DNA of 14,426 bases from a virus (IMGVR_UViG_2850796239_000001); one strand, 5' to 3'; positions 1 through 14,426 are shown, numbered from the stretch's first letter. Numbers and translations are program-made. Notes: generated from the sequence alone by a model not told the origin.

Positions 1-240
1 TTATCCGTCCTGATTTTGCATCCACTCCACCACAAAATCAGCCAGCCCCCCAACATCATTAATATCCAGTAACGCGACATCAAGATTAAGTGACACATCA
101 CTGGCTACAGCAATAACATGTCTGTCTATCACTAATTCTTCCGGTCGATGTCCGGCTCCATCGCGAAACAGCACAATCTTTGCGATCTCTTCATGCTTAA
201 ACCCTTCGACCAGAATCAAATCCAGCTTTGAGGTATCCAT
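1..240 (-). CDS. mobB: MobB (molybdopterin-guanine dinucleotide biosynthesis adapter protein), C-terminal fragment; gene interrupted by prophage insertion
   Basis: Minus-strand ORF ending at TAA (rc of 1..3). Translation MDTSKLDLILVEGFKHEEIAKIVLFRDGAGHRPEELVIDRHVIAVASDV... matches the C-terminal part of enterobacterial MobB as I recall it. In-frame similarity continues upstream of the Met to ~264 (..DLHFLASR), then ends at stop codons (265..267, 271..273 on the minus frame). Confidence 0.8.
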   Translation of the reverse strand: MDTSKLDLILVEGFKHEEIAKIVLFRDGAGHRPEELVIDRHVIAVASDVSLNLDVALLDINDVGGLADFVVEWMQNQDG

Positions 241-508: not shown

Positions 509-1015
509 TTATATGCTAACTGCCTTGTTGGTTAGTTGGATGAGATCGGCCTCAGCTTCATTTCCCGCCAAAATCTCTCTAACCTTTTGTTCTGACAGGT
601 TATTTAGGCTTAAAGCAGCTAATCTTCGAATACCCGTTAAACTAATCAACTCTTGGTTTTCTTGGCTGCAAAATTCGAGCAACTTTTCAACACCTTTTCG
701 TTTGAGCGTATGGATCACGATCTCTTTTTCTTGTTCGCTTAGAGAATCCATTATTTTCATTAACTCATTAGCTTTTGAGGCCTTGTTTGATGGTTTGGTT
801 GCTGTTTGCAACTGACCGCTAACAATTGCAGCGACGTGTTCAGGCAAGTCTTGCAATCGGTACGCAAAGGCCCTTCCTCTAACTCCGGGTGTTGTAACTG
901 AACGTTTTTCCCACCCCTCATTTCTTGCTCGCTTATGGAGTCCTGCAAGGGATGTGGGTAAACCGCCAACACCGAGGAGTTCACTAGCAGGCACCCATTC
1001 TTGATCTTGGATCAT
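509..1015 (-). CDS. Mu c-like repressor
   Basis: 168-aa ORF divergent from ner/A. Start ATG (rc of 1013..1015) is preceded by GGGAGG (rc of ~1022..1027). N-terminal motif WVPASELLGVGGLPTSLAGLHKRARNEGWEKR is shared with the transposase N-terminus (WVPMTELASFCGLPSSLAGLHKKAKKESWQTR), as in Mu where c and MuA share a DNA-binding domain. Confidence 0.75.
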   Translation of the reverse strand: MIQDQEWVPASELLGVGGLPTSLAGLHKRARNEGWEKRSVTTPGVRGRAFAYRLQDLPEHVAAIVSGQLQTATKPSNKASKANELMKIMDSLSEQEKEIVIHTLKRKGVEKLLEFCSQENQELISLTGIRRLAALSLNNLSEQKVREILAGNEAEADLIQLTNKAVSI

Positions 1016-1146: not shown

Positions 1147-1401
1147 GTGTTAATCGTGATTTTAGGTGAGGATTGGGATTCCGCTGATATCAAGGCTGAG
1201 CTTGAGAAGCGTGGTACTAATTTGTCTCGCTTATCGAGAGAAAATAATTTAAGGCCAAGAACGTTAGGTAATACTTTGCGAGTCCCCTATTTAAAGGGAG
1301 AAGGGATTATTGCGCAAGCTATTGGAGTTCAACCAGAGGTTATTTGGCCAACCAGATATGAACGTCGCTCACGGAGGAAAAATGTGGGTTCCAATGACTG
1401 A
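1147..1401 (+). CDS. ner: Ner-like DNA-binding protein (Ner/Nlp family)
   Basis: Translation ..EDWDSADIKAELEKRGTNLSRLSRENNLRPRTLGNTLRVPYLKGEGIIAQAIGVQPEVIWPTRY.. aligns with Mu Ner (..RDWHRADVIAGLKKRKLSLSALSRQ..PKGEQIIANALETKPEVIWPSRY). Start is uncertain (GTG 1147 or GTG 1156). Stop TGA at 1399..1401 overlaps the transposase start. Confidence 0.85.
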   Translation: MLIVILGEDWDSADIKAELEKRGTNLSRLSRENNLRPRTLGNTLRVPYLKGEGIIAQAIGVQPEVIWPTRYERRSRRKNVGSND

Positions 1402-2056
1402 ATTAGCTTCATTTTGTGGATTACCTAGTTCACTTGCGGGTTTGCATAAGAAAGCTAAAAAAGAGTCATGGCAGACACGTCTTAAAGCTGGGGTTAAGGG
1501 ACGTGTTGTTGAGTGCGAAATAAACTCTTTACCTATTGTTATTCAAAAGGCACTGCGTGAACGCTATGTGGCACAGTTGGTGGCTACAGAGAACAATGTT
1601 TCTGAAGTGAAAGCTGTTACCAGAAAAACACGCAATCCTGATGCTGTCCAGGCAATCGAAGCATATCGCGGTTCGCCACAACTGATGGAAGAACGCCTGA
1701 ATGCGCTGACCGAAAACCAGCGTCGGGTATCTGAAGCAAGGGCTGCGCTGGTGGTGGAAGTGCTGAAGCTGGAAAGCGCCGGTAACCTCGGGCGACTGAA
1801 AGCCATTAACTTTCTTGTTGAAAAAGCCCGTAAAGGTGAGCTGCCGGAGCGCCTGCAACAGGCCGCAGTTAACGCCAATGCAAAACGTGGCGCTAATCGT
1901 ACTATCAGCCGCGATCCACTTTACCAGTGGGTTCTGAAATACAACCAGTCGCAGAACGCCGCCGAACGGCTGCTGTTACTGGCACCGGGAAAACGCGACG
2001 AAATAAAACCGGAAGAAATCAGCTGGCTGCCTGAATTTCTGGCGCAGTATCGCTAG
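1382..2056 (+). CDS. MuA-like transposase, N-terminal DNA-binding portion, ending at an in-frame TAG
   Basis: ATG at 1382 is preceded by GGAGG (1374..1378). The ORF-track start at 1310 overlaps ner and lacks an RBS. Ends at TAG 2054..2056, in the same frame as the next ORF. Confidence 0.8.
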   Translation: MWVPMTELASFCGLPSSLAGLHKKAKKESWQTRLKAGVKGRVVECEINSLPIVIQKALRERYVAQLVATENNVSEVKAVTRKTRNPDAVQAIEAYRGSPQLMEERLNALTENQRRVSEARAALVVEVLKLESAGNLGRLKAINFLVEKARKGELPERLQQAAVNANAKRGANRTISRDPLYQWVLKYNQSQNAAERLLLLAPGKRDEIKPEEISWLPEFLAQYR

Positions 2057-3466
2057 GTGAACGGCAGACCCATGTCAGAAGCCTACGAGGATTTTGTCGC
2101 AGAATGGCAGCGTCGCCATGCGGACGAACCGTACATGCTGGAGGTGATGCCTTCCTATGATGTTGTCCGGTATGCCATGAAAAAACTGCCGGAAGTGGTG
2201 AAACAAAAAGGGCGCGTTACCGGCAGTGAATACCGTCAGCTTGAAGGATTCACCCGCCGCGACTGGACAGCTATGCCGGTGAATTATGTCTGGATTGGTG
2301 ACGGTCACGGTATGAAGCTGAAATGTGCGCATCCGATCCACGGGCGTCCATTCTCACCGGAAGTCACGTTTGTGATCGATGGTGGAACACGGTTTGTTGT
2401 TGGCTGGAGTCTTGACCTTGCCGAAAACGTGTTCGCCGTTGCCGGTGCGATACAGCACGGCATTCGCAACCACGGAAAACCGTTCCTGTATTACTCGGAT
2501 AACGGTTCCGGTGAAACGGCTGACATGCTGGACAAAGAGGTCGTGGGTATTCTGCCACGCCTGGGGATTAAACACCCTACCGGTATTGCCGGTAATCCAC
2601 AGGGACGCGGCATTATTGAACGCCTGAACCGGACACTGCCGATGCGTATAGCCAGGAGGTATCGCACCTATTTTGGCAAGGGTGCTGACCGGGAATCGTT
2701 GCGTGTACTTAACCGTGATCTGCGTTCAGCGTTTAACTCCCTGCAACAGGACAAGCCTCTGAACGACCGCCAGAAAGCGGCAATGCGCGAGCTGCCATCG
2801 TGGGCGGAGCTTATTGAGGCTATTCGTGAAGGCGTGGAATGGTACAACAACCGCCCGCATTCTGAGCTGCCGATGAAACCGAACGGACGGCATTACAGCC
2901 CGGCAGAGTTCAGAAAAAAACGCCTGGCAGAAGAAGACACCGAAATTGAGTGGCTGAGTGATCTTGAGCTGCGCGACATGTTCCGCCCAATGGTGGAACG
3001 ACCGGTAAGACGCTGCGAAATTCAGTGGCTGAACAATATTTACTACGCGCCGGAGTTGCGTGACGAACACGGTCGCAAAGTGCTTATCAGTTATGACATT
3101 CATGACGCCGAGCGAATTACGGTACGTCGCAAGGACGGCAGCTTTATCTGTGAGGCGATATGGAACGGCAATAAACGCGCAGCCTTTGCTGTCAGTGCTG
3201 AATATCACAAACAACAGCAGCGTATTAAAGGAATGCGCAAACGCGCTGAGGAAAAAATTCGTGATGCTGAAGATGAAGGTATTCAGATTCTGGAACACAA
3301 ACAGGCTGAACCCTGGCTGAGTAATGTTTATCGCCCGGTTGGTAATGTGGTGGCAGTTCAGCAACCGGAATATGAAGAAGAGCATGACGAAGAATTTGAA
3401 CGCGATTTCCGGCTGGGGATGCAAAAACTTTTTGCCATGCAGGAAGAAGATGATCCGCTGGCCTGA
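2057..3466 (+). CDS. MuA-like transposase, DDE catalytic core and C-terminal portion
   Basis: Same frame as 1382..2056 (both coordinates are 2 mod 3), directly after the TAG. Contains DDE-type motifs VWIGDGHGMK, YYSDNGSGE and AGNPQGRGIIER typical of Mu/retroviral-integrase-fold transposases. Combined length is ~695 codons, close to MuA (663 aa). Confidence 0.85.
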   Translation: MNGRPMSEAYEDFVAEWQRRHADEPYMLEVMPSYDVVRYAMKKLPEVVKQKGRVTGSEYRQLEGFTRRDWTAMPVNYVWIGDGHGMKLKCAHPIHGRPFSPEVTFVIDGGTRFVVGWSLDLAENVFAVAGAIQHGIRNHGKPFLYYSDNGSGETADMLDKEVVGILPRLGIKHPTGIAGNPQGRGIIERLNRTLPMRIARRYRTYFGKGADRESLRVLNRDLRSAFNSLQQDKPLNDRQKAAMRELPSWAELIEAIREGVEWYNNRPHSELPMKPNGRHYSPAEFRKKRLAEEDTEIEWLSDLELRDMFRPMVERPVRRCEIQWLNNIYYAPELRDEHGRKVLISYDIHDAERITVRRKDGSFICEAIWNGNKRAAFAVSAEYHKQQQRIKGMRKRAEEKIRDAEDEGIQILEHKQAEPWLSNVYRPVGNVVAVQQPEYEEEHDEEFERDFRLGMQKLFAMQEEDDPLA

Positions 3467-3474
3467 ATAAAAAA

Positions 3475-3496
3475 ACAGTCCGCGGGAACGGACTGT
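3475..3496 (+). other. Stem-loop in the A-B intergenic region
   Basis: ACAGTCCG(3475..3482)-cgggaa-CGGACTGT(3489..3496), followed by TTAAATAAA rather than a U-run; not a canonical terminator. Confidence 0.25.
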
Positions 3497-3541
3497 TAAA
3501 TAAAGGAAACAAAGCTGATTTGAAATAACCGAGGAAATACT

Positions 3542-4108
3542 ATGACTGATATTGATGATGTTTTCAACACTATTAACGCTTTGATTAACGAGGGCGACAA
3601 GTCTCAGGAAGATATTGCTGATGAAGCCGGAATGTCTCCGGCAACACTCTCGGCTCTGCGTAAAGGAGAGTACAACGGTAATGTCGAAGGTATGCATGAC
3701 AAATTACAGAAATGGTATCAGGTCTGGCAGAAGGGACAGAACTTGTCAGGTACCCCTGGTGTTGTGAAGACCCAGACATTTTGTGATTTGCATGAGCTGT
3801 TTAAAACAGTGCGCTCACTCGGGATTATCAGTGTCGTTGTTGGCGTACCGGGTGTCGGAAAAACCTTTGCTGCCCGGGAATATTGTCGCAGGACAGCTAA
3901 TGCCTGGATGGTGACTCTTGCTCCGGCACATTCGAGCGTAACGGAATGCCTCCTTGAAATAGCATATGCGCTGGAAATTAATAATCCGGGAAGAAATAAG
4001 GGGAATGTAACCCGCGCCATTCGCAGAAAACTGGGTGGTGGTAAAGAAACCAGTGGCCGTGTTAACCCCCTTCTGATTATTGATGAAGCTGAGGTGTACT
4101 GGCAATAG
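3542..4108 (+). CDS. MuB-like transposition ATPase, truncated after the Walker B motif by IS insertion
   Basis: ATG 3542 with GAGGA (3531..3535). Walker A GVPGVGKT and Walker B LLIIDEA. Aligns with Mu B (..GNPGVGKTEAAREY.. LVIIDEAD..). The last codons (EVYWQ, stop) are encoded by the IS terminus starting at 4090. The ORF is 188 aa against ~312 aa for Mu B. Confidence 0.85.
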   Translation: MTDIDDVFNTINALINEGDKSQEDIADEAGMSPATLSALRKGEYNGNVEGMHDKLQKWYQVWQKGQNLSGTPGVVKTQTFCDLHELFKTVRSLGIISVVVGVPGVGKTFAAREYCRRTANAWMVTLAPAHSSVTECLLEIAYALEINNPGRNKGNVTRAIRRKLGGGKETSGRVNPLLIIDEAEVYWQ

Positions 4109-4132
4109 CGGACACTACCATTTGTTCTTTTT

Positions 4133-4819
4133 TTAAGCAGCCATCTGATGATATTTTTCCCTGAAGGCTGCCGGGGAGATATTCCCCAGACGAGAGTGAC
4201 GACGCTGACGATTGTAGAAAATCTCAATGTATTCCCGTATTACTGAGATGGCTTCATCCCGGTTATTAAAACGATAGTGGCTCAGGCTCTCATTTTTCAG
4301 CGTTCCCCAGAAGCTTTCCATCGGAGCGTTGTCGTAACAGTTACCTTTACGCGACATTGATGTTTTCAGACCAAACTGCTCCTGTATGACCCGGTAATCG
4401 TATGCGCAGTACTGTGAACCTCGATCAGAGTGGTGGATTAGCCCGGCAGGTGGGCGCTGGCTCCTGAGCGCCATAAACAGGGCTTTACCTGTCAGCTCTT
4501 TTGTCATGCGCTCTCCCATGGCGTAGCCGACAATTTCGCACGTATAAACATCTTTGATGCCAGCGAGGTACAACCATCCCTCCTGTGTGGCAACATACGT
4601 CAGGTCCGCCACCCAGACCTGATTTGGTGCTGTAGGAGCGAACGTCTGGTTCAGCAGATTTGGCGCAACTGGCAGATTGTGGTTCGGGTTCGTAGTCGCT
4701 CTGAACTTGCGTTTCTGCTTACAGCGTAGCCTTAGCTCCTTACGAAGACGTGCCAGTCGGTCACGACCAACGATGATGCCATTCTCTGCCAGCTCCGTCT
4801 GGAGCCGCCCGGGTTCCAT
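4133..4819 (-). CDS. IS3-family transposase OrfB, C-terminal catalytic part (frame-disrupted copy)
   Basis: 228-aa ORF containing the IS3-group DDE core (..WVADLTYV.., HHSDRGSQY, SMSRKGNCYDNAPMESFWGTLKNE). It is out of frame with the orfB N-terminal segment at 4761..4952. Confidence 0.85.
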   Translation of the reverse strand: MEPGRLQTELAENGIIVGRDRLARLRKELRLRCKQKRKFRATTNPNHNLPVAPNLLNQTFAPTAPNQVWVADLTYVATQEGWLYLAGIKDVYTCEIVGYAMGERMTKELTGKALFMALRSQRPPAGLIHHSDRGSQYCAYDYRVIQEQFGLKTSMSRKGNCYDNAPMESFWGTLKNESLSHYRFNNRDEAISVIREYIEIFYNRQRRHSRLGNISPAAFREKYHQMAA

Positions 4820-4952
4820 ATGTTTCGCGAGTGCGGATATGTGCCACCTTAATCTCCAGTTTTAGCCGCTCATCACTTTGTTTTCTGTCTGAGGGTTCAT
4901 GCTGTACCCAGTTGTAATAACCGCTCCTGGATACACCAAATACCTGACACAT
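4761..4952 (-). CDS. IS3-family OrfB N-terminal segment, separated from the rest of orfB by a frame change
   Basis: MCQVFGVSRSGYYNWVQHEPSDRKQSDERLKLEIKVAHIRTRETYGT then out-of-frame tail. It lies in the -1 frame relative to orfA, as expected for programmed frameshifting, but +1 relative to 4133..4819. Confidence 0.5.
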   Translation of the reverse strand: MCQVFGVSRSGYYNWVQHEPSDRKQSDERLKLEIKVAHIRTRETYGTRAAPDGAGREWHHRWS

Positions 4953-4987
4953 CGCTTCAATGGGAAATTGTTGTCGCCATTGTTCGA

Positions 4988-5250
4988 TTAACGCGTATTT
5001 TTCAGCGACTCCTGTGCAAAATACGCTGTTGCTTTTTTTAATATATCTCGCTCAAGGCGAGCTTCATTTAACGCCTTACGCAGTTGCAGAATTTCAGATT
5101 CCAGTTCAGCCACCGTGCGGGAACCAGGAGTACCGAGCCCTTTTCTGGCGGCGGTAACCCATTGTCCTAAAGTGCCTTCAGGAAGGGATAATCGGGAAGC
5201 GCCTTCACTGATCGAAAGTTGATTTTCAAGAACCGTTCTGACAGCTTCGG
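4988..5250 (-). pseudogene. IS3-family orfA, 3' portion; the 5' portion (codons 1-15) lies at 8006..8052 on the other side of the IS66-family insertion
   Basis: Manual minus-strand translation ..VRTVLENQLSISEGASRLSLPEGTLGQWVTAARKG..LERDILKKATAYFAQESLKNTR* continues the MSRKTQRYSKEFKAEA fragment. A-run slippery site (A7 at rc of ~5033..5039) lies near the orfA end. Confidence 0.75.
5243..5250. repeat. 8-bp target-site duplication (GCTTCGGC), left copy, flanking the IS66-family element
   Basis: Identical 8-mer at 5243..5250 and 8006..8013 immediately outside the element's terminal inverted repeats. Confidence 0.9.
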
Positions 5251-5283
5251 CGTAAGCGCCCCGAGAAGTACGTAGCGTAAGGA

Positions 5284-6885
5284 TTATTTTACAGACGAGA
5301 AGTTCCAGGGCAGCAGTTCATGCACTTGGTTCGACGGCCAGTCATTGAGCTTCTCGATCACTTCGCGCAACCAGTCCTCCGGCTCCACTTCGTTCTGTTT
5401 GCAGGTGACCAGCAGACTGTAGATGATCGCCGCACTTTCTCCTCCCTTGTCTGAGCCGAAAAAGAGATAATTTTTTCTTCCAACCGCCACCGATCGTAAC
5501 GCGTTTTCACCGATGTTGTTGTCTATTTCCACCCAGCCGTCACGACAGAACTCGTTCAGCGCATTCCAGTGATTCAGGATATAGTCGAACGCCTTCGCCA
5601 TCTCCGCATGTTTCGACAGCGTTTTCCTCTGCAATTGTATCCAGTCGTACAACGACTGCATCAACTGGACGCTTCTGGCTTTTCTGACTGCAAGCCGTTC
5701 CTCTGCCGGACTGCCACGTATCTCCGCTTCTATGTCGTATAACTCTGCTATCCGTCTGAGCGCTTCCTGAGTCATTTCTGTCGGACGGCGCACATCCTCG
5801 TCATGGATTTTTCGGCGGGCGTGGGCCAGGCACCCGGCTTCCTTCACCCGGCCCGTTTCGTACAGTACGTTATAACCTGCATAGGCATCAGCCTGCAGTA
5901 CGCCCTGATACTTTGCCAGGTGGAGCTGCGGATGTTCTCCTTTGCGATCTGCCGAATACGCGAACCAGACGGCTGCCGGCAGGGATGAACCCGCATTACG
6001 ATCATCCCTGACGTATACCCACAGACGACCCGTTTTCGTCTTTCCGTTCCCCGGGGCCAGTACTTTCACCGGAGTGTCATCTGCGTGCACCTTTCCTGCC
6101 TCCAGAACATAGTCATTCAGCGCTATATACAGAGGACGGAGTTTGTCTGCCATTTCTGATACCCAGCGCACCATGGTATTACGGCTCAGCTCCACGCCCT
6201 GTCGCGCGTATATTTCTGACTGGCGATATAAAGGGATATGTTCCATATATTTGCTGACCAGGATCCGTGCAAGTAACCCTGCACTGGCATAACCGCGTTC
6301 GATCGGTTTAGGGGGAAGTGGTGCCTGAACGATGACATCACACCGGCTACAGGCCAGTTTGGGACGTATGGTTTCGATAACTTTAAAGGCGGTATTAATG
6401 ATATCCAGTTGCTCTGAGATTGTTTCCCCCATTTCTTTCAGAACACCTCCACAGGCCGGGCAACTGGTTTCAGCAGGCAGAAGGCGATGTGTCTCCCGGG
6501 GAAGTTCTGCCGGCAGCGGTTTTCGTGAAGATTTTCGTCCCGGGGATTCAGGCTTACTGGCGATCGGGTTTTCTGACGGGGGACTGGTGTCAGGTGAATC
6601 TGTGACTGACGATGCATCTTCCAGAAGATTTCTGGCTGTGTTCAGCCGGTTTTCCAGTTCCGACAGTCGTTTTTCTGCCTGTCGGATCTGATTTTCAAGC
6701 TTATGACGCTTTTTCTCTGAACTCTGGCCGAACAACATACGACGCAACCTGTCGAGTTGCGCTTTCAGCCGTTCAATTTTCTGCTCATAGCCCGCGACCT
6801 GACAGGCATACTGTCGAAGCCGACTCTGTTGCTTACGCAACATGGCTTTAAGCAGCTCAATATCATCGGGGAGTTCATTGTTCAT
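5284..6885 (-). CDS. tnpC: IS66-family transposase TnpC
   Basis: 533-aa ORF with N-terminal coiled-coil/leucine-zipper-like region, a CxxC...CxxC zinc-finger region (SCPACGG ... CSRCD) and a large catalytic domain typical of IS66 Orf3. Confidence 0.9.
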
Positions 6886-6904
6886 TCCCTTGTTTTATCA
6901 CGGG

Positions 6905-7252
6905 TTATATCCGGATGCCAGGCCGTTCTGTCCGTTTGGGATGTTGCCACGCGATCCCCTCCAGTAGCATGGATAACTGAGCTGGCGTCAGGTGCACTTT
7001 CCCTTCCCGGGTCACCGGCCAGACGAAGCGGCCCCGTTCCAGGCGTTTGGCGAACAGGCATAACCCGTCACGATCGGCCCACAGTATTTTCACCATTTTG
7101 CCACTGCGGCCCCGGAAGACGAAGATATGCCCGGAGAACGGGTCATCTTTCAGCGTGTTCTGCACCTTCGAAGCCAGGCCATTGAAGCCACAACGCATAT
7201 CTGTGATGCCAGCGATGATCCAGATTTTGGTACCGGTCGGCAGCGTTATCAT
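6905..7252 (-). CDS. tnpB: IS66-family TnpB (Orf2)
   Basis: 115-aa ORF (MITLPTGTKIWIIAGITDMRCGFNGLA...) typical of IS66 Orf2; its start overlaps the tnpA stop as ATGA at 7249..7252. Confidence 0.9.
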   Translation of the reverse strand: MITLPTGTKIWIIAGITDMRCGFNGLASKVQNTLKDDPFSGHIFVFRGRSGKMVKILWADRDGLCLFAKRLERGRFVWPVTREGKVHLTPAQLSMLLEGIAWQHPKRTERPGIRI

Positions 7253-7923
7253 CGGATACCCCCTTTCATTTCGCGGATTAGCGCCCGTAACAGTTCCGGA
7301 GTGAGAGGGTCAAACAGTTTTACCACACCTGATTTAAGATGCAGCTCGCACCGTGGGACGTTTCCGGGAGCCCCCTCAGGGCGCTCATCATGCTTGTTAC
7401 GCCAGAAGGGATTTGTAACTGGTCTGGTCGGCTCCGGCGTATCAGTCAGTGCCACCGGGACAGGCATGCATTCCTGTATGTCATCATCGCTCAGTAAGCC
7501 GTCCTCGTACTGGCTTTTCCATTTAAACAGCAGGTTATTATTGATATCGTGTTCTCTGGCGATCCGGGCAACAACAGCCCCAGGCTGTAACGCCTGCTTA
7601 GCCAGACGGACCTTAAATTCACGGCTATAGCTGGTTCGCCGTTCTTTTCGCCATGAGCCTTCTCTGATTTGAGGCTCTGTTAATTCCTTCTTTCTGTTGG
7701 CATAAAGGATGGCGTCAAGTTGAGCGAATGAAACTGAATCGGGCAATGGCCATGCGATACCGGATGCAAGAAATCGCTGAAAAAGCGTATGTATTGTGGA
7801 ATGACTGAGACCCAGACGCTGAGCGATGGCCCGGATGGTCAGTTTATCTTCAAATCTTAAACGCAGGGCATCAGGCAAATAAGAACGGAAGCAGGGAATA
7901 TCTTTTGTTGTCTGGGAATTCAT
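7249..7923 (-). CDS. tnpA: IS66-family TnpA (Orf1) with N-terminal helix-turn-helix extension
   Basis: 224-aa ORF with HTH-like segment LTIRAIAQRLGLSHSTIHTLFQRF and the IS66 Orf1-like motif RRTSYSREFKVRLAKQALQPGAVVARIAREHDINNNLLFKWKSQY. Confidence 0.85.
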   Translation of the reverse strand: MNSQTTKDIPCFRSYLPDALRLRFEDKLTIRAIAQRLGLSHSTIHTLFQRFLASGIAWPLPDSVSFAQLDAILYANRKKELTEPQIREGSWRKERRTSYSREFKVRLAKQALQPGAVVARIAREHDINNNLLFKWKSQYEDGLLSDDDIQECMPVPVALTDTPEPTRPVTNPFWRNKHDERPEGAPGNVPRCELHLKSGVVKLFDPLTPELLRALIREMKGGIR

Positions 7924-8005
7924 CGTTCGTGTCCATCAATATAGATGGGCGCGATTGTTGCCAGACAGGACAATTTTCACAAGACGTCGCTGATGGGGCG
8001 CTTAC

Positions 8006-8013
8006 GCTTCGGC
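8006..8013. repeat. 8-bp target-site duplication (GCTTCGGC), right copy
   Basis: Identical to 5243..5250; it lies within IS3-family orfA codons K-A-E-A (rc GCCGAAGC). Confidence 0.9.
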
Positions 8014-8212
8014 TTTGAACTCTTTAGAGTAACGTTGGGTTTTTCTGCTCATTATTAGCTCCTTCTGATGCCATTCTATTTCAGGAAGGAGTGTCCGTTA
8101 AACTCAGGCTACCTCATCATTCCTGACCGTATTGCCTTTCTGGTGGTGTTAACCCGCCCGGACAAAACCACACTCAGAATCGAAATCACCCGTCGATGGG
8201 AGGCCACCATTA

Positions 8213-9289
8213 ATGCCGTATGAAATCCCCACGCTGGGCAAACTGATTGCCGACGGCGAAAAAGATATTGCGTATGAACTCGGCCTGCAAAAGCTGCCGC
8301 CTGTCAGTGTTGAGCAGGCGCTGAACGTGTCATTCAGCAGTCAGGTCCGGGATTTATACGACCATCAGAGCTGGATTAAGGACCAGATAATCCCGTCCAC
8401 CACGTCTGATGATGAAACCATTATCAAAACAGCAAAGTATGAAGGGGTTATCCGCAAGCAGGCCACCTTTGCCAGCGGGCGGGTGACCTTCACCAGTCAG
8501 TCCCCCCTTCCGGCAGAAACCCGGATGCAGTCCGACACGAACCAGGTGTATCAGGTACTCACGTCCGGCGAGGTGCAGGACGGCGAGGTCACCGTCATCG
8601 TGCAGGCTGAAGAAGCCGGTGTGGCGGGCAATCTTGCTGCCGGTGCCGTACTCACCCTGCTGTCCCCGCTGCCCGGAACGGCCAGCACAGGCGCGGTGGC
8701 TGAAGGTGGCATCACCGGTGGCGCAGACACTGAATCCATCGCAGCGCTGCTGGACCGTCTGCTGTATGTGCGCCGCAATCCACCGACAGGCGGCGCGTTG
8801 CATGACTACGTGATATGGGCGCGTGAAGTGCCGGGCGTCAGCCGCGCGTGGGCGTGGGATGCATGGCACGGCCCCGGCACGGTCGGGCTGGCATGGCTTT
8901 ATGATGACCGGGAAAACATCGTGCCAACCCGCGAAGACCTGAAGACAATGGAGCAGTATCTGTTCTGCCACAAACACCCGGCCACGGGCGTGATGGTGGG
9001 TAAACCGGGCGGCATTGAGGTCTGGCCGGTACAGGTCAGGCTGAAGAAAGTCAGCATATCCATCCGTCTGACACCGGACAGCCTGGCGAACAGGAGCGCC
9101 GTCCGGGCAAACCTGACCGCGTTACAGAAGACACTGGCACCCGGTCAGACGCTGCCGGTGTCCTCGCTGCGCACGGCCATCGGTATGACGTCCGGCATCA
9201 CGGATTACTTCCTTAACATCGGGGAGGACACCACCAGTGATGTGGATGAGCTTATCACCATCGGGGAGGTGACATGGCTCACAGCGTGA
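8213..9289 (+). CDS. Baseplate J-like protein (Mu gp47 family)
   Basis: 358-aa ORF; ATG 8213 preceded by GGGAGG (8198..8203) with a TAATG overlap to an upstream frame. Size, composition and position before gp48/S/U fit the Baseplate_J family; the call is from memory of the family, not an alignment. Confidence 0.8.
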   Translation: MPYEIPTLGKLIADGEKDIAYELGLQKLPPVSVEQALNVSFSSQVRDLYDHQSWIKDQIIPSTTSDDETIIKTAKYEGVIRKQATFASGRVTFTSQSPLPAETRMQSDTNQVYQVLTSGEVQDGEVTVIVQAEEAGVAGNLAAGAVLTLLSPLPGTASTGAVAEGGITGGADTESIAALLDRLLYVRRNPPTGGALHDYVIWAREVPGVSRAWAWDAWHGPGTVGLAWLYDDRENIVPTREDLKTMEQYLFCHKHPATGVMVGKPGGIEVWPVQVRLKKVSISIRLTPDSLANRSAVRANLTALQKTLAPGQTLPVSSLRTAIGMTSGITDYFLNIGEDTTSDVDELITIGEVTWLTA

Positions 9290-9858
9290 CGGAATGGCTG
9301 GCCGCACTGCAACAGGTCATGCCACGGGGTAAGGCATGGCCGCGTGATAACGACGCGGATTTAAACCGCTTTTTAAGGGCGCTTGCAGAACGTTTAAACC
9401 GCACTGAATACGACGCCTCGCGTCTGCATGTGGAGATGCGACCGGAAACCACGCTCCGGCTGCTGCCGGAGTGGGAGCAGTATCTGGCGCTGCCGGAATG
9501 CGGAATTGCCCCCACCACCAGGGAAGCCCGCCGCCGTGCCGTGGTGGAGAAATACCGTCGCAGGGGCGGGCTGGCAACCTGGCAGACTGAAGCCGCAGCA
9601 GCGGCGCTGGGCTTCACCATTAAGGTGACAGCCGTTCTGCCGCACCACTGTCTGCGCGACTGCATGTATCCGCTGCATCCGGCGCGGTATCGCTGGATGC
9701 TGAAAGTGAACGTCCCGGGTAAAGATGCCGGGCGGTTTACCTGTATTGATGGCGTCATGACACCATTAATCAGCGAACGCACCCGTGAGCTGGAATGCCT
9801 GCTGAAGCATTACCGGCTGGCGGGCACGGAATATGAATATTATTACACCGGAGAATAA
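9274..9858 (+). CDS. Mu gp48-like tail/baseplate protein (DUF2313 family)
   Basis: 194-aa ORF overlapping the J-like gene by 16 nt; its position between baseplate J and the tail fibre matches Mu gene 48. Confidence 0.7.
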   Translation: MAHSVTEWLAALQQVMPRGKAWPRDNDADLNRFLRALAERLNRTEYDASRLHVEMRPETTLRLLPEWEQYLALPECGIAPTTREARRRAVVEKYRRRGGLATWQTEAAAAALGFTIKVTAVLPHHCLRDCMYPLHPARYRWMLKVNVPGKDAGRFTCIDGVMTPLISERTRELECLLKHYRLAGTEYEYYYTGE

Positions 9859-9861
9859 TTT

Positions 9862-10959
9862 ATGTTTTATGTGGATAACCCGACGGGTGTGCCGGTAATG
9901 CCACCTGTCGCGGCTGAATTAAGCAAAACAACGCTTTATTTCACCGAAGGCGGGAACGGTATTCCGCCCACGTATCCGGGGCCGGACTGGTTTAATATTA
10001 TTCAGTCTGAATTACTGGAAATACTCCGGCAGGCAAATATCAAACCGGATAAAAACACAACCGACCAGATTATGACAGCGCTGAAAAAACTGTTTATTAC
10101 GAACAGTGGTTCAGCCGGAGCTATTGCCGGATTAACCGGTCAGAATAATATGTTCCCGTATTTTACCGGCAAAGACACAATGGCATTAACGCCGCTCAGT
10201 GCTTTTGTTCGCGGTATTCTCGGAAAAAACAGCGCCAGCGATTTTGTTAAAGACATCGGAGCAGGCCGTGCTTTCAGTGGTTCTGTAAGTATTGGTGGCG
10301 ACAGTGGAGCCTGGACGACGGCGCAGTTTATTGACTGGCTGGATTCACAGGGAGCATTTAACCATTCTTACTGGATGTGCAAAGGCTCCTGGGCTTATGC
10401 GGGCAATAAAATCATCACCGATACCGGCTGCGGCAATATTCAGTTGGCCGGTGCAGTTGTTGAGGTAATGGGCGTCAAATCAGCCATGACCATCAGGGTG
10501 ACCACACCAACAACGGCCACGAACGGCACGACAAGCTCACAGTTCACCTACATCAACCACGGAGACGCCTACTCTCCCGGATGGCGACGTGAGTACAATA
10601 CCAGAAACAAACCAACAGCATCGGACGTGGGGGCACTCCCCGCAAACGGTAATGCGGTCTCAGCAACCAGACTCCAGACTGCCCGCAGGATTAACAATGT
10701 GCTGTTTGATGGCCCCCGCGATATCACCATCAACACCACCGAGCCCGGCGCTGTGCGTAATTTCCAGTACACCAATGAGGTGTTTTACAACCCGGGCAGT
10801 ACCACAATTACCTGGAGGTTTCGCGCACCTTCTGGCTGCCAGTTGTCAGGCATTTATGTCCAGGATACGGGAAAAAATACAGCAGACAATATCGGTGGTG
10901 TGTATTACAAACAGGCTCAGATTTATATCAATGGCGCATGGCGCTCTGTATCCGGTTAA
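9862..10959 (+). CDS. Tail fibre protein (Mu S-like)
   Basis: ATG 9862 with GGAG upstream. N-terminus MFYVDNPTGVPVMPP... resembles the Mu/P2-type tail-fibre N-terminal domain as I recall it; followed directly by a Tfa/U-type assembly gene. Confidence 0.75.
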   Translation: MFYVDNPTGVPVMPPVAAELSKTTLYFTEGGNGIPPTYPGPDWFNIIQSELLEILRQANIKPDKNTTDQIMTALKKLFITNSGSAGAIAGLTGQNNMFPYFTGKDTMALTPLSAFVRGILGKNSASDFVKDIGAGRAFSGSVSIGGDSGAWTTAQFIDWLDSQGAFNHSYWMCKGSWAYAGNKIITDTGCGNIQLAGAVVEVMGVKSAMTIRVTTPTTATNGTTSSQFTYINHGDAYSPGWRREYNTRNKPTASDVGALPANGNAVSATRLQTARRINNVLFDGPRDITINTTEPGAVRNFQYTNEVFYNPGSTTITWRFRAPSGCQLSGIYVQDTGKNTADNIGGVYYKQAQIYINGAWRSVSG

Positions 10960-10973
10960 TTAAGGAGAAAATA

Positions 10974-11504
10974 ATGGAACTCAGAAATGTTACGCGTTAT
11001 TACCCTGAAGGTATGCCTTATGGTGAAGGCATTCAGTATTTCCGCAGTGAAGACGGGCAGGACTTTTATGAATCCCTGGATAAATTCACGAAGAAATACA
11101 AGCTGTGCACGCATCCTGAAACCGGCGTGATTTATTCGATGGCGGAAGACGTATCCCGTCTTTATCCCGTTGGTTTTACCATTGTGGAAGTGGATGAACT
11201 GCCGGAAGGCTTTGGCATTGAAGTCTGCTGGTATTATAAAAACGGCGAAGTTCTTCCTGTTCCTGTTGATTATTTGCGGCTGGCAGAAAAACAGCGCCAG
11301 AGCCTGCTGAATGAAGCAAGGGACATCACCTCCGACTGGAAAACCGAGCTGGAGCTGGGCACCATCAGCGACGATGACAAAGCCCGTCTTACACAGTGGA
11401 TGGCGTATATCAGGGAGGTAAAGACACTGGATTTAAGCACCGTTACTGACGAAGCCTCCTTTAATTCCATCAACTGGCCGGAGCGTCCCGATGCCGCAGC
11501 TTAA
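10974..11504 (+). CDS. Tail fibre assembly protein (Mu U / Tfa family)
   Basis: ATG 10974 with TAAGGAG (10960..10966); the ORF-track start at 10938 is upstream of the RBS. C-terminal motif ..GTISDDDKARLTQWMAYIREVKTLDLS.. matches the conserved Tfa/U motif (Mu U ..GIISDENKQKLTEWMLYAQKV..). Confidence 0.85.
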   Translation: MELRNVTRYYPEGMPYGEGIQYFRSEDGQDFYESLDKFTKKYKLCTHPETGVIYSMAEDVSRLYPVGFTIVEVDELPEGFGIEVCWYYKNGEVLPVPVDYLRLAEKQRQSLLNEARDITSDWKTELELGTISDDDKARLTQWMAYIREVKTLDLSTVTDEASFNSINWPERPDAAA

Positions 11505-12543
11505 AGGTGTGATAAAAACGCCCACGGGAGAACCGCTGGGCGGCGCAACCATTACACTGACCTCCCTGCACAATCGTGCAGGGATCCTGAAAAGTGTTTT
11601 CAGCCACGTCACCACACAGAGTGGAGAGTACGACTTCCCTGTTCTGCCGGGCGTGTACAGCGTTCGTCTGACACAGAGTGCACAGTGCCTTTCAGAAATC
11701 GGTGTCATCCGCGTTTATGAAGATTCAACGGACGGTTCGCTGAATGATTTTCTGGGCGCAACTGATATTGACCTGCGTCCGGAATCCCTGAAGAAATTCG
11801 AAGAGCTGGCGCAACAGGCGCAGCAGAGCGCCGGGGCCGCAGCCGGAAACGCACAGCAGACGGCGCAGGATGTGGCGGCAGCCGCAACGGCCCGTGATGA
11901 TGCACAACGTTTTGCGGAGAAAGCCCGACAGGATGCAACCGTCACAGCTGAGGACAGAAAGGCCACTGCGGAAGATGTGACAAGCACAGGAGCAAATGCA
12001 GCCGCAGCCGGACAGAGCGCACAGGATGCCGCAGGTTATGCCCGCGCAGCAGAACAGGCCAAAAATGACATTGATGCTGCGCTGACCGGCACTCTGAAAA
12101 TGGCTAACCATCTGTCAGAAATCGCAGCAGCAGGCGAAAAGGCACAACAGAAGTCCCGGGATAATCTGAGGCTGAAAAGTGCGGCCACGATGGAAGCACA
12201 GAGCGACATTTACGACCGGACAAAAGGCCGTCTGGCGATACCCGGCGCATTCGGCTTTGGGTGTGCTTTTCTGCCTGAAGATGTTATCCGTTTTGACACT
12301 AAGAGTGATTTCCTGGCCTGGGTAAGGAATGCGCTGCCAGGTGAATATTCCGTTGCTGGCCCCTACGGCATCATCATACCCGACACACGGTTTGAAGGGG
12401 GGCTCAGCATCCGGTGGACTGATGCACGCCCTGAGACAAGGGAACCGCGGTACAGAGCCAAATCCCTTACTTTTTACGGCATTAACGGCCCCATTTATCA
12501 CACCCGCTACTGCTACTGGCCCATATCCAGACTGACTGGGTGA
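11491..12543 (+). CDS. Side tail fibre protein (lambda Stf-like N-terminal domain with Ala/Gln-rich shaft)
   Basis: N-terminus ..KGVIKTPTGEPLGGATITLTS...GVYSVRLTQ...IRVYEDSTDGSLNDFLGA.. parallels the lambda Stf N-terminus (..SGVLKDGTGKPVQNCTIQLKA...GQYSVILQ...ITVYEDSQPGTLNDFLCA..). Followed by an AQQ/AAA-rich repeat region and the ..LSEIAAAGEKAQQKSRDNLRL.. motif common in fibres. Confidence 0.75.
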   Translation: MPQLKGVIKTPTGEPLGGATITLTSLHNRAGILKSVFSHVTTQSGEYDFPVLPGVYSVRLTQSAQCLSEIGVIRVYEDSTDGSLNDFLGATDIDLRPESLKKFEELAQQAQQSAGAAAGNAQQTAQDVAAAATARDDAQRFAEKARQDATVTAEDRKATAEDVTSTGANAAAAGQSAQDAAGYARAAEQAKNDIDAALTGTLKMANHLSEIAAAGEKAQQKSRDNLRLKSAATMEAQSDIYDRTKGRLAIPGAFGFGCAFLPEDVIRFDTKSDFLAWVRNALPGEYSVAGPYGIIIPDTRFEGGLSIRWTDARPETREPRYRAKSLTFYGINGPIYHTRYCYWPISRLTG

Positions 12544-12893
12544 AAATAAATATAGCCACAGAAGATATTATTTACAGAATCGTGGCGAGCTCTGTCCGCA
12601 ACAGATGGGGAGACCCTGACATTGGCGGGCTGATTATTGCTGCGTACCAGGGAAAAGCTGACGGTGATAAAGACATCAGACTTGTCAGGGGGCGGTCATA
12701 CAGAGGCTCACGACTGGGACCGGTGGGGATTTCAGCGCCCTGTACTCCCACCGGAACGCATATAGTATACCCACAATATTTCATTACGGGATGTTCAGAG
12801 CATTCATTACCGGGGTCATATTGCGCCCTGTCCGGGGTGCCGGATACATATGTCTCTGGCGCAATGCTTGGGCTTTTTATTCGCACATCGTGA
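12540..12893 (+). CDS. Hypothetical ORF of uncertain reality (possible fibre distal fragment or accessory gene)
   Basis: GTG-initiated 117-codon ORF overlapping the Stf stop (GTGA) and the next gene's start region. No recognisable family; the C-terminal half has atypical composition. Confidence 0.25.
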   Translation: MKINIATEDIIYRIVASSVRNRWGDPDIGGLIIAAYQGKADGDKDIRLVRGRSYRGSRLGPVGISAPCTPTGTHIVYPQYFITGCSEHSLPGSYCALSGVPDTYVSGAMLGLFIRTS

Positions 12894-12903
12894 GGAATGC
12901 ACT

Positions 12904-13470
12904 GTGGAAATTAAAAAAATCATTAATCCCCGTTATACCGAAAGTGGCGCAGTAGACTGTGACGTTTTTTTTGACGACAGGGACCAGGCAGTCCCCTACA
13001 CAGCCACCGCTGATGATGTCGCTCCGACGGGTCAGCAAATCTGGCAGGAACTGCAAAGCGGCAAATGGGGTGAGATAGCCCCATTCACTGTGACACCAGA
13101 AATGCTGGAAGCGGCCAGAGAGGCCAGACGTCAGGAAATTGAAGCATGGCGCACAGAACAGGAGGCGAAGCCGTTCACGTTTGAATGGAACGGTCGTATC
13201 TGGAATGCTGGCCCCGACTCACTGGGCCGCCTGTCCCCGGTAGTCATGCTGGCAAAATCTGTCACAGCACAAACACATATGGCGTGGAGCGATGCGGATA
13301 ATCAGCAGGTGCAGCTGACGACGCAGGAACTTGAGGAACTGGCCACAGCGATGATGCAGGCCATTGTTGAGCGCAACGATGAGATTTATCGCTGTCAGCG
13401 GGAGATGAAAGAACAACTTTCTCTGTTGCCCACACTGGACGAGGTGAGAGCGTTCAGACCAGGCGATTAA
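12904..13470 (+). CDS. Putative tail fibre assembly/chaperone protein (second, non-U type)
   Basis: ORF 12850..13470 in the track; preferred start GTG 12904 with GAGGAA (12892..12897). Position immediately after a fibre gene; the C-terminal region resembles prophage tail-fibre chaperone-like proteins, but this is a weak call from memory. Confidence 0.5.
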   Translation: MEIKKIINPRYTESGAVDCDVFFDDRDQAVPYTATADDVAPTGQQIWQELQSGKWGEIAPFTVTPEMLEAAREARRQEIEAWRTEQEAKPFTFEWNGRIWNAGPDSLGRLSPVVMLAKSVTAQTHMAWSDADNQQVQLTTQELEELATAMMQAIVERNDEIYRCQREMKEQLSLLPTLDEVRAFRPGD

Positions 13471-13492
13471 ATAATCAGTTTGTATAGTTTAT

Positions 13493-13520
13493 GACGATCG
13501 ATAGCATCATATCGATCGTC
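13493..13520. promoter_or_regulatory. Perfect palindrome with two GATC (Dam) sites upstream of com-mom; candidate methylation-sensitive repressor-binding region
   Basis: GACGATCGATA-gcatca-TATCGATCGTC (11-nt arms); GATC at 13496..13499 and 13514..13517. In Mu, a GATC cluster upstream of Pmom mediates Dam/OxyR control. Confidence 0.5.
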
Positions 13521-13545
13521 GGTTTGCATCAAGTGTGATTAAATA

Positions 13546-13589
13546 CCCCCAGCCCTCCGGGCAGCGATATCCTGTTATTACACTGGGGG
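13546..13589. promoter_or_regulatory. GC-rich dyad CCCCCAG-N30-CTGGGGG just upstream of com; candidate late-activator (Mu C-type) site or RNA structure
   Basis: CCCCCAG at 13546..13552 and its reverse complement CTGGGGG at 13583..13589; the right arm overlaps the com Shine-Dalgarno (GGGGGA, 5 nt before ATG 13595). Confidence 0.35.
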
Positions 13590-13594
13590 AAGTT

Positions 13595-13780
13595 ATGGAT
13601 TCTGTTCGTTGTAAAAATTGCAATAAATTGCTGTTTAAAGGAGGTTGTAAGCATATAGAAATCAAATGTCCTCGCTGTAAACGTTACATTGTCATATCGA
13701 GTGCCCGGGAGCATCCCACGGAGCTGTGTTGTGGGAAAAGAGAAGAAATCACACATTCTGACAAAACCCTGCGTTATTGA
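13595..13780 (+). CDS. com: Com, zinc-finger translational activator of mom
   Basis: ATG 13595 within ORF 13535..13780. Translation [61 protein letters not shown] (61 aa) is near-collinear with Mu Com ([34 protein letters not shown]...HSDETVRY), with the four-Cys zinc finger conserved. Confidence 0.9.
13714..13736 (+). promoter_or_regulatory. Predicted mRNA stem-loop sequestering the mom SD and GTG start (translation-inhibitory structure, target of Com)
   Basis: TCCCAC(13714..13719)-GGAGCTGTGTT-GTGGGA(13731..13736); the loop contains GGAG and the 3' arm contains GTG 13731. This mirrors the Com-dependent mechanism known for Mu mom. Confidence 0.45.
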
Positions 13781-14426
13781 GTATGAAGGCCGGATTGTCG
13801 GCTATGGTTCAAGGGAGCTGCGCGTTGAAACCATATCCTGCTGGCTGGCCCGCACAATCATTCAGACAAAGCATTATTCCCGCCGTTTTGTGAATAACTC
13901 CTGGTTGCATCTGGGCGTATTCAGTGGACGTGATCTGGTTGGTGTTCTTCAGTGGGGATATGCCCTTAACCCCAACTCAGGGCGTCGCGTTGTGCTTGAA
14001 ACGGATAACCGGGGCTATATGGAACTGAACCGCATGTGGCTACACGACGACATGCCCCGCAACTCTGAATCACGGGCCATCAGCTACGCGCTGAAAACCA
14101 TCAGGTTACTGTATCCGTCAGTGGAGTGGGTTCAGTCCTTTGCAGACGAACGTTGCGGGCGTGCAGGTGTTGTGTATCAGGCGTCAAATTTTGATTTTAT
14201 TGGCAGCCATGAAAGCACATTCTACGAACTGGACGGTGAGTGGTATCACGAGATAACGATGAATGCGATTAATCGTGGAGGGAAGCGCGGCGAATATTTA
14301 CGAGCGAATAAGGAGCGGGCCGTGGCGCACAAATTTAATCAATATCGTTACATCAGGTTCCTGAACAAGCGCGCAAAAAAGCGACTAAACACTAAGCTAT
14401 TCAGGATTCAGCCTTACCCGAAGTGA
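13731..14426 (+). CDS. mom: Mom DNA modification protein (adenine modification, anti-restriction)
   Basis: Long ORF (track 13689..14426) overlapping the 3' end of com as in Mu, ending at TGA 14424..14426. Preferred start GTG 13731 (GGAG 8 nt upstream, gives 231 aa). The sequence ..[51 protein letters not shown].. is Mom-like from memory and position. Confidence 0.85.

Follow-up and report, generated by a model that had tools for sequence, protein, structure and literature searches.

A probable decayed copy of a conserved, non-invertible two-fibre module in a Mu-like prophage remnant

In phage Mu, two receptor specificities are provided by the invertible G segment, in which one constant anchor exon serves two oppositely oriented distal cassettes; gix sites bracket these cassettes and Gin inverts them, giving one fibre type per particle. 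The N-terminus of Mu S docks on loop 133-155 of gp48, with one fibre (a trimer) per wedge (PMC11915804). A different plan is that of the lambdoid side tail fibre Stf: in Ur-lambda Stf a collar domain (residues 1-91) is followed by a linker (92-101) and then by a coiled coil (PMC12617516). Lambda is a siphovirus in which twelve collar domains surround the gpV/gpM junction at the tail tip, and its genes run J - stf - tfa, the Stf chaperone being a PF02413 Tfa protein. The contractile virions of Vibrio phage XM1 and cyanophage A-1(L) carry baseplate receptor-binding proteins plus a second fibre (gp40 and gp82, respectively) at the neck; for the A-1(L) neck fibre, no host binding was found in its study. 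Here we analyse 14,426 nucleotides (nt) of viral DNA, IMGVR_UViG_2850796239_000001 (the window, meaning this whole stretch), in which positions 9862-13470 contain two consecutive pairs of a tail fibre gene and a partner gene. We think it likely that this segment is a decayed copy of a conserved, non-invertible two-fibre module of temperate contractile-tailed phages of Escherichia, Shigella and Yersinia.

Two tandem fibre-plus-partner pairs on the plus strand had been proposed in a first-pass annotation of the window, and sequence searches of Pfam, PHROGs and the PDB recovered all four genes at or near the proposed positions. The fibre region contains the following features (aa, amino acids; E, expectation value):

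9862..10959, plus strand: fibre 1, S-like, 365 aa, matching Mu S; phrog_1833 tail fibre, E 6e-94
10974..11504, plus strand: tail fibre assembly protein of the Mu U / lambda Tfa family, 176 aa; PF02413 Caudo_TAP, E 5.5e-20
11491..12543, plus strand: fibre 2, 5' part of the frameshifted gene, 350 codons; PF08400 phage_tail_N, E 5.9e-29
12530..12543, plus strand: frameshift site, (GACT)2 where in-frame relatives have (GACT)3 or GACTGACTGGCT
12540..12893, plus strand: out-of-frame 3' end of fibre 2, 117 codons; distal tip, residues 349-468 of the intact protein
12904..13470, plus strand: DUF4376 partner of fibre 2, 188 aa; PF14301, E 7.5e-17; phrog_1141, E 2.4e-85

The two pairs differ in ancestry, as had also been proposed: a Mu-S-type N-terminus is found in one fibre and a PF08400 collar in the other, and the partners belong to PF02413 and PF14301, respectively. 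Residues 1-82 of fibre 1 match the Mu S N-terminus (PDB 5yvq/9ki1, E 1.7e-20), and the Mu G(-) fibre chain 8ju3 (Sc+S'v) is matched by residues 126-258 (E 1e-82). By BLASTP, fibre 1 is 38% identical to Mu S over residues 1-127 and 72% identical to Mu S'v over residues 128-257, and its layout comprises a baseplate anchor (1 to ~128), a Mu S'v-like domain (128-257) and a distal part (~258-365). Fibre 1 has, and fibre 2 lacks, a homologue of the N-terminal part of Mu S that docks on gp48. The tfa reading frame opens at 10938, its start likely being the ATG at 10974, 7 nt after AAGGAG; the product also matches phrog_136 (E 4.9e-55) and Mu U (PDB 5yvq_B, E 2.8e-13), with 30% identity to Mu U' and 24% to U.

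The gene for fibre 2 starts 14 nt inside the tfa gene. Its Stf-like N-terminus, recognised in the first-pass annotation, was borne out by the PF08400 match and by PDB sequence matches to the Ur-lambda Stf collar 9e7m (E 2e-9) and to XM1 gp40 (7kjk, residues 3-185, E 6e-8). The start proposed for this gene was correct, whereas the proposed end was not: position 12543 closes a frameshift stop, and 11491-12543 is only the 5' three quarters of a gene that extends, in intact relatives (468 aa), to the position of 12893. The open reading frame (ORF) at 12540-12893 is 89% identical by tblastn to residues 349-468 of the fibre of E. coli VL40, a strain that carries a Mu-like prophage of 34 kb, complete as far as can be seen, with all head and tail genes and the same four-gene block. 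Since the tail of fibre 2 survives out of frame, the apparent gap between fibre and chaperone genes is the distal end of the fibre. An AlphaFold2 model of fibre 2 residues 1-200 (mean predicted local distance difference test score, pLDDT, 77) contains a beta-sandwich at 1-75, a short helix, a low-confidence linker at 91-100 and a long helix at 98-199, which places the collar domain at about 1-90. The long helix is a predicted coiled coil, and the overall plan appears to be that of lambda Stf.

Structural comparison of the collar with Foldseek gave the Ur-lambda Stf collar 9e7m as best PDB match (E 1e-7, template modelling score 0.82, 38% identity). The best matches also included the XM1 neck collar spike gp40 (7kjk, E 7e-7), a chain in the A-1(L) gp5-neck fibre entry 8keg (E 8e-4) that, at 125 residues, equals the neck-fibre domain gp82N in length, and Bxb1 tail-tip chains. 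In these solved structures the domain is found at the neck in both myoviruses and around the tail tip in both siphoviruses. Similarity to lambdoid Stf is restricted to the first ~106 residues of the intact relative of fibre 2, and the distal part has its homologues among the tail fibres of lytic phages, including Av-05 and Goslar. Fibre 2 and Ur-lambda Stf are alike in the N-terminal PF08400 collar, the linker and the following coiled coil; however, fibre 2 belongs to a Mu-type contractile-tail module, its partner is a DUF4376 protein, and it lies in the order gp47-gp48-S-Tfa and not in a lambda-type context. With XM1 gp40 and A-1(L) gp82 it has in common a small N-terminal beta domain as anchor followed by a helix. 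The genes for those neck fibres stand apart from the baseplate fibre genes, unlike that for fibre 2, for which the neck is a candidate docking site.

The gene for the second partner begins with GTG at 12904 behind GAGGA, 10 nt past the position of the intact fibre's stop, and its product was modelled by AlphaFold2 with a pLDDT of 93. DUF4376 genes lie directly 3' of fibre genes with a related C-terminus in phages otherwise unrelated: Rac-SA53, phiP27, the rV5-like phage Av-05, SerU-LTIIb and P-Eib phages. Distant DUF4376 proteins, gp27 of Alteromonas phage V22 and the partner of the Campylobacter CJIE1 H-fibre, are needed for fibre function (PMC7289586, PMC7882524). The window protein resembles these two in its PF14301 domain and in its place immediately 3' of a fibre gene, at a distant sequence relation; the experimental support belongs to the V22 and Campylobacter members, whereas enterobacterial DUF4376 proteins are known from sequence. 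By analogy, the DUF4376 protein is probably the assembly chaperone of fibre 2. An hhalign comparison of DUF4376 with Tfa revealed no relation (probability 2.8%), with both alignments shallow enough for remote homology still to be possible.

We then asked how constant this arrangement is among relatives. A survey seeded with a gp48 alignment failed, as no stretch was conserved enough, and the collar domain was used as seed instead; the resulting IMG/VR survey of 80 loci is biased to the window's collar subtype and measures the constancy of its context, not the frequency of the block. A Tfa gene was immediately followed by a collar fibre gene in 77 of the 80 contigs, and S, Tfa and collar fibre were consecutive in 68; gp48 was also present upstream in 57 and mom downstream in 18. 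Among 5426 complete E. coli genomes, the Tfa-to-collar junction was found in 47. The full order gp47-gp48-S-Tfa-collar fibre-DUF4376, on one strand, is present in six E. coli Mu-like prophages with com-mom directly after it, and also in the Stx2e phage phiP27 (L52-L57), the LT-II prophage Rac-SA53 (rac63, rac64, tail1-4), vB_Apl-pPE4, Yersinia similis and several S. flexneri prophages. Both phiP27 and Rac-SA53 have contractile tails, that of Rac-SA53 being assigned from its sheath, hub and Baseplate_J proteins, and the block sits on three contractile-tail chassis: Mu-like prophages, phiP27 and Rac-SA53. In phiP27 (L54-L57) and Rac-SA53 (tail1-tail4) the four genes have the same order and families as in the window and likewise follow a Baseplate_J gene and a gp48-like gene. 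These two phages differ from the window prophage in being integrase-type and not transposable, in having intact copies of the block, and in a collar only ~39% identical to that of the window. The architecture is thus already present in public phage records. A search of the literature, of incomplete coverage, on dual or neck fibres in Mu-like or phiP27-like phages and on PF08400 found no paper on the arrangement, and in the likewise incomplete set searched for phiP27 and Rac-SA53 no functional study of the second fibre was found.

Within the block, neighbouring genes overlap or are separated by gaps of 3-16 nt, and no plus-strand promoter or terminator signal above chance was found inside it. 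This close spacing on one strand suggests that the block genes are probably carried on one late transcript together with the baseplate genes.

Two groups of collar-bearing loci were set aside. Collar-bearing loci of Serratia and Pseudomonas gave no gp47, gp48 or Tfa matches and were read as ordinary siphovirus side-fibre contexts; they follow an ORF of ~1050-1126 aa, a size that would suit a lambda J-type central fibre. An apparent further chassis type, with P-type collars and no gp47 or gp48 match, proved to consist of Shigella-like loci ridden with insertion sequences (IS) and was not counted. In vB_Apl-pPE4, an Actinobacillus phage record (L004, 2067-8555), identity to the E. coli prophage Rac-SA53 reaches 98.8-99% in the gp47-like and gp48-like proteins, and the gene layout is also that of Rac-SA53, including an antirepressor among the baseplate genes; the host assignment of this record seems doubtful.

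We also examined the region for inversion machinery, which the first-pass annotation had reported missing. No tblastn match to Mu Gin was obtained anywhere in the window (E<=1e-3), and the Mu gix sequence had no match in the window at up to 3 mismatches. The window contains no inverted repeat longer than 29 nt; the longest, at 22-29 nt, are only 71-78% complementary, which is no better than chance, and a cassette is flanked by none of them. The DUF4376 gene and com are just 124 nt apart, and no invertase lies between the fibre block and com-mom. The comparison with relatives gave the same result: Gin was found in 0/80 of the related IMG/VR loci and is absent from VL40, and it is present in Mu, D108 and SfMu, which have the classical invertible G segment and share with the window, at the DNA level, com-mom only. 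A Gin-like gene 2.5 kb 3' of the block in S. flexneri was judged unrelated, as there are no inverted repeats around the block and a 608-aa ORF on the opposite strand lies between them.

The block does resemble the Mu G segment in its genomic place between gp48 and com-mom, its Mu-S-type anchor, its 72%-identical S'v domain and its U/U'-family Tfa, and both would provide two receptor specificities. However, the block consists of two complete genes on the plus strand with unrelated anchors and unrelated chaperone families, without gin or gix, and the fibre genes share no constant N-terminal exon. Since the two fibres have separate start codons and separate anchor domains, it is misleading to view the block as a G segment from which gin was lost. 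Thus, the block is neither invertible nor a degenerate G segment. The same features, namely same-strand cassettes with separate starts and anchors, no inverted repeats or gix-like sites in the window and no Gin in the 80 loci, make it very unlikely that the two fibres are used alternately through a hidden switch, be it a remote invertase acting by inversion or deletion or on/off slippage of the (GACT)n repeat in fibre 2.

To assess selection on the block, ratios of nonsynonymous to synonymous substitution rates (dN/dS) were computed against more distant Mu-like relatives. The collar domain gave 0.06-0.12, below the values for the baseplate genes gp47 (0.13-0.17) and gp48 (0.20-0.28); the S anchor gave 0.12-0.16, Tfa 0.10-0.24 and DUF4376 0.11-0.14. 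The anchor domain of fibre 2 is therefore under strong purifying selection. Furthermore, the fibre 2 ORF was uninterrupted and abutted the DUF4376 gene (-10 to +23 nt) in 40 of the 52 assessable loci, across which the length of the fibre ranged from 421 to 1047 aa. Pairwise DNA comparison showed that the backbone 8114-~10246, comprising gp47, gp48 and S residues 1-128, is kept in all Mu-like relatives. VL40 and FDAARGOS_943 carry the window's cassette 2 at 96-97.5% identity, but another S distal part and Tfa, while relatives of the STEC346 type have the S C-terminus, Tfa and collar in common with the window (85-94%) and differ in the shafts and tips of fibre 2. The distal parts of both fibres thus swap independently. 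Constant anchors combined with independently exchanged distal parts are the pattern expected of two working receptor-binding proteins, and the comparisons indicate that the second cassette is functional in the lineage.

In one Mu-like relative, that of E. coli STEC719 (L011, 3590-6316), the second slot contains a 301-aa collar ORF, a 100-aa ORF, a 456-aa SGNH/GDSL hydrolase and a 50-aa C-terminal remnant of DUF4376; an enzymatic receptor-binding module has taken the place of the fibre tip and chaperone.

These data bear on the two outcomes suggested in the first-pass annotation, simultaneous expression of both fibres or a fossil of fibre-module exchange. Simultaneous use fits the lineage, given the conserved gene order, the purifying selection and the 40/52 intact genes, whereas the fossil of a single exchange does not, since phiP27, Rac-SA53, a Yersinia prophage and dozens of viral contigs all have this four-gene block as well. 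It is correspondingly highly improbable that the second pair lacks a function and has been passively carried along since a past module exchange with a lambdoid phage. Such a leftover would be in keeping with an N-terminal domain common to lambdoid side tail fibres, with the frameshift in fibre 2 and the defective state of the window prophage, and with the broken copies in several relatives. It would not be expected to show a collar dN/dS below that of the baseplate genes, a gene intact and abutting its partner in most assessable loci, a presence on three chassis types and in 77/80 viral contigs, or a distal part that is actively reshuffled, including its replacement by an SGNH hydrolase module. 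For the lineage, this reading is already contradicted.

We next analysed the lesion in fibre 2. Relative to VL40 and FDAARGOS_943, the window is 4 bp short in the GACT repeat at 12530-12537, which brings the TGA at 12541-12543 into frame. This TGA overlaps the GTG at 12540-12542 (GTGA) that opens the 117-codon tip ORF, and translation might restart there to give the tip as a separate product. Three allelic states of a tract of only 2-3 units were observed among the available loci with this fibre tip: (GACT)2 in 13 entries, (GACT)3 in 4 and GACTGACTGGCT in 6. Either in-frame allele yields the same product by loss of one 4-nt unit (GACT or CTGG). The out-of-frame allele was also found at L021 8881, L057 8911, L089, L094 and L097-L100, and it occurs on two flanking haplotype groups that are ~19-20 substitutions apart in 780 nt, one with the window and L057, the other with L021, L089, L098 and L099. 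The nearest neighbours in each group are in-frame alleles, which suggests recurrent slippage or short-tract gene conversion.

In the 5426 complete E. coli genomes the out-of-frame allele had no exact match, and (GACT)3 was present at 21 places in six IS-rich genomes, which we read as resembling enteroinvasive E. coli. The exact 45-nt stretch surrounding (GACT)3 occurs at 2-7 places per genome in VL40, FDAARGOS_943/944, CFSAN029787, RMDEC364 and VL46, indicating that several resident prophages of these IS-rich strains share the second-fibre tip. The identifiable carriers of the out-of-frame allele are IS-rich genomes as well, one labelled S. flexneri and one Shigella-like but labelled E. coli. 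A slippage switch could draw on the same 4-bp loss on two haplotypes with in-frame nearest neighbours, on the three allelic states and on a stop-start overlap through which the tip might be made separately. However, slippage is only weakly favoured by a tract of 2-3 units, the complete genomes in which (GACT)3 occurs at 21 places lack the frameshifted allele, its identifiable carriers are genomes in which prophage decay is expected, and slippage would toggle fibre 2 only, without alternation between the fibres. The frameshift is most simply read as repeated pseudogenisation in decaying Shigella prophages.

How, then, would an intact module of this kind work? The first two products would be an S-like fibre, whose N-terminus is the homologue of the gp48-docking region in Mu S, and its Tfa chaperone; the third and fourth would be a second fibre, with a collar, a flexible linker and a long helix, and its own DUF4376 chaperone. 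Having unrelated anchors, the two fibres would not need to compete over the single gp48 site per wedge, and one virion could carry both and recognise two receptors without a switch. Two anchors that need no switch would explain why the lineage has neither gin nor crossover sites. Both fibres can probably be accommodated on one virion, and by analogy with the solved structures fibre 2 would most likely clamp onto a virion ring, the neck being the leading candidate.

Several observations weigh against this explanation or against parts of it. We found neither virion proteomics nor microscopy nor host-range data on any phage with the block, so that the presence of both fibres on one particle is something we infer. 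In two solved siphoviruses the domain is at the tail tip and not at the neck, and the second-fibre gene is broken in some relatives. Moreover, phiP27 and Rac-SA53 have 96% identity in the collar (over 100 aa) despite dissimilar chassis: between the head, neck, sheath, tube and baseplate proteins of these two phages there was no BLASTP match at E<=1e-3. Their DUF4376 proteins are 91% and their S distal parts 74% identical, and their S anchors are not alignable. The window-type collar was found only on Mu-like chassis (20/20 loci in hand), and the phiP27-type collar on both Rac-type (31 loci) and P27-type (7 loci) chassis. A sequence-specific contact with a ring should co-vary with the chassis, as the S anchor does; the collar does not, which weakens the neck model. 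These sequence relationships would be better explained by a ring clamp that tolerates sequence differences, or by docking on a partner that the block itself encodes.

The second of these options, in which fibre 2 docks on the shaft of fibre 1 or on a Tfa retained at its tip to give a branched or extended composite fibre, is in our view unlikely. It would account for the restriction of phiP27/Rac-SA53 similarity to the four block genes, with no detectable similarity among the other virion proteins, for the P-type collar on both Rac-type and P27-type chassis, and for the Tfa-collar junction being the most constant of the block, although linkage alone can account for the conservation of that junction. 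However, the top four solved-structure matches of the collar bind tube, tail-tip or neck rings and never another fibre. Furthermore, the same Mu-like collar is found beside two different S distal parts and beside Tfa proteins that are only 32% identical, and the docking site would need to lie in conserved portions of S or Tfa.

A broader proposal, which we put forward tentatively, is that the S distal part, Tfa, collar fibre and DUF4376 protein may together make up a mobile host-range unit, passed among contractile-tail chassis that are unrelated, with only the S N-terminus adapted to the chassis. The collar would then be a clamp tolerant of sequence, at the neck or on a partner within the unit, that adds a second receptor-binding fibre to any virion of this kind, and the unit would be an invertase-free alternative to Mu G inversion, in which (GACT)n slippage might also switch or split fibre 2.

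It is scarcely credible, by comparison with a virion role for both fibres, that the second pair is cargo expressed by the lysogen, for instance a surface or exclusion factor. The pair does lie at the far end of the late region beside com-mom, a typical place for accessory genes, and its collar is independent of chassis type. However, the start of fibre 2 overlaps the end of the tfa gene by 14 nt with no separate promoter signal found, the protein has a trimeric-fibre architecture of anchor, linker and long helix, tail fibres of lytic phages, those of Av-05 and Goslar included, are homologues of its distal part, and the DUF4376 family acts as fibre chaperone where tested.

The surroundings of the block show that the copy in the window is defective. 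The remaining features of the window are:

509-1015, minus strand: repressor-like gene
1147-1401: ner-like gene
4089..8116, no strand given: IS600 fragment and ISSfl3 (IS66 family), in the place of the B-to-gp46 gene block of VL40
Last 110 nt of gp46 through mom: prophage right end
8213..9289, plus strand: gp47-type baseplate wedge protein (Baseplate_J); PF04865, E 4.7e-60
9274..9858, plus strand: gp48-type wedge protein; PF10076 Phage_Mu_Gp48, E 3.4e-30
13595..13780, plus strand: com, first of the right-end com-mom pair; PF10122 Zn_ribbon_Com
13731..14426, plus strand: mom, last prophage gene; PF25680 Mom, E 1.3e-75

The insertion target is mobB, and MobB fragments flank both sides of the prophage (record CP026875.1; window 1-240 and L034 14689-14958). 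In the transposase-B region (window 1382-4108), an in-frame stop at 2054-2056 interrupts the gene for the MuA-like transposase, and the B gene ends after 188 codons, cut by the IS600 fragment. As the VL40 relative is intact, insertion sequences have taken the place of the B-to-gp46 block in the window. Rightward of them, the gp47-type gene is the first that is complete, with 94-99% nucleotide identity to relatives, and the gene order from there on, all on the plus strand, is gp47, gp48, S-like fibre, Tfa, Stf-type-N fibre, DUF4376 protein, com and mom; com-mom is 87-88% identical in nucleotide sequence to its counterparts in Mu, D108 and SfMu. The head genes are all missing, as are most of the tail genes, so that virion assembly from this prophage is impossible, and the transposase stop together with the truncated B gene renders it immobile as well. 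The window is thus a defective Mu-like prophage remnant of ~14 kb, and its four-gene module cannot work, as fibre 2 is frameshifted and the head and most tail genes are gone.

The 124-nt spacer ahead of com (13471-13594) contains the near-palindromic GACGATCGATAGCATCATATCGATCGTC with GATC sites, in a position that we take to be that of the Dam/OxyR-controlled mom promoter in Mu. Antisense ORFs of the fibre region had no Pfam match, and the window had no Rfam match.

The window itself matters little, being a dead copy in a decaying prophage. Its relatives give a warning for annotation, in that proteins labelled "prophage tail fiber N-terminal domain" are not restricted to lambdoid siphoviruses. 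The anchor of fibre 2 is almost the same on virions whose proteins, outside the block, have no detectable similarity, and, if its docking site is identified, it could be a general handle for attaching a second receptor-binding protein to engineered phages or tailocins. Altogether, these data suggest that dual receptor specificity in some temperate myoviruses of E. coli and Shigella, Mu-like phages among them, would come from two differently anchored fibres and not from DNA inversion.

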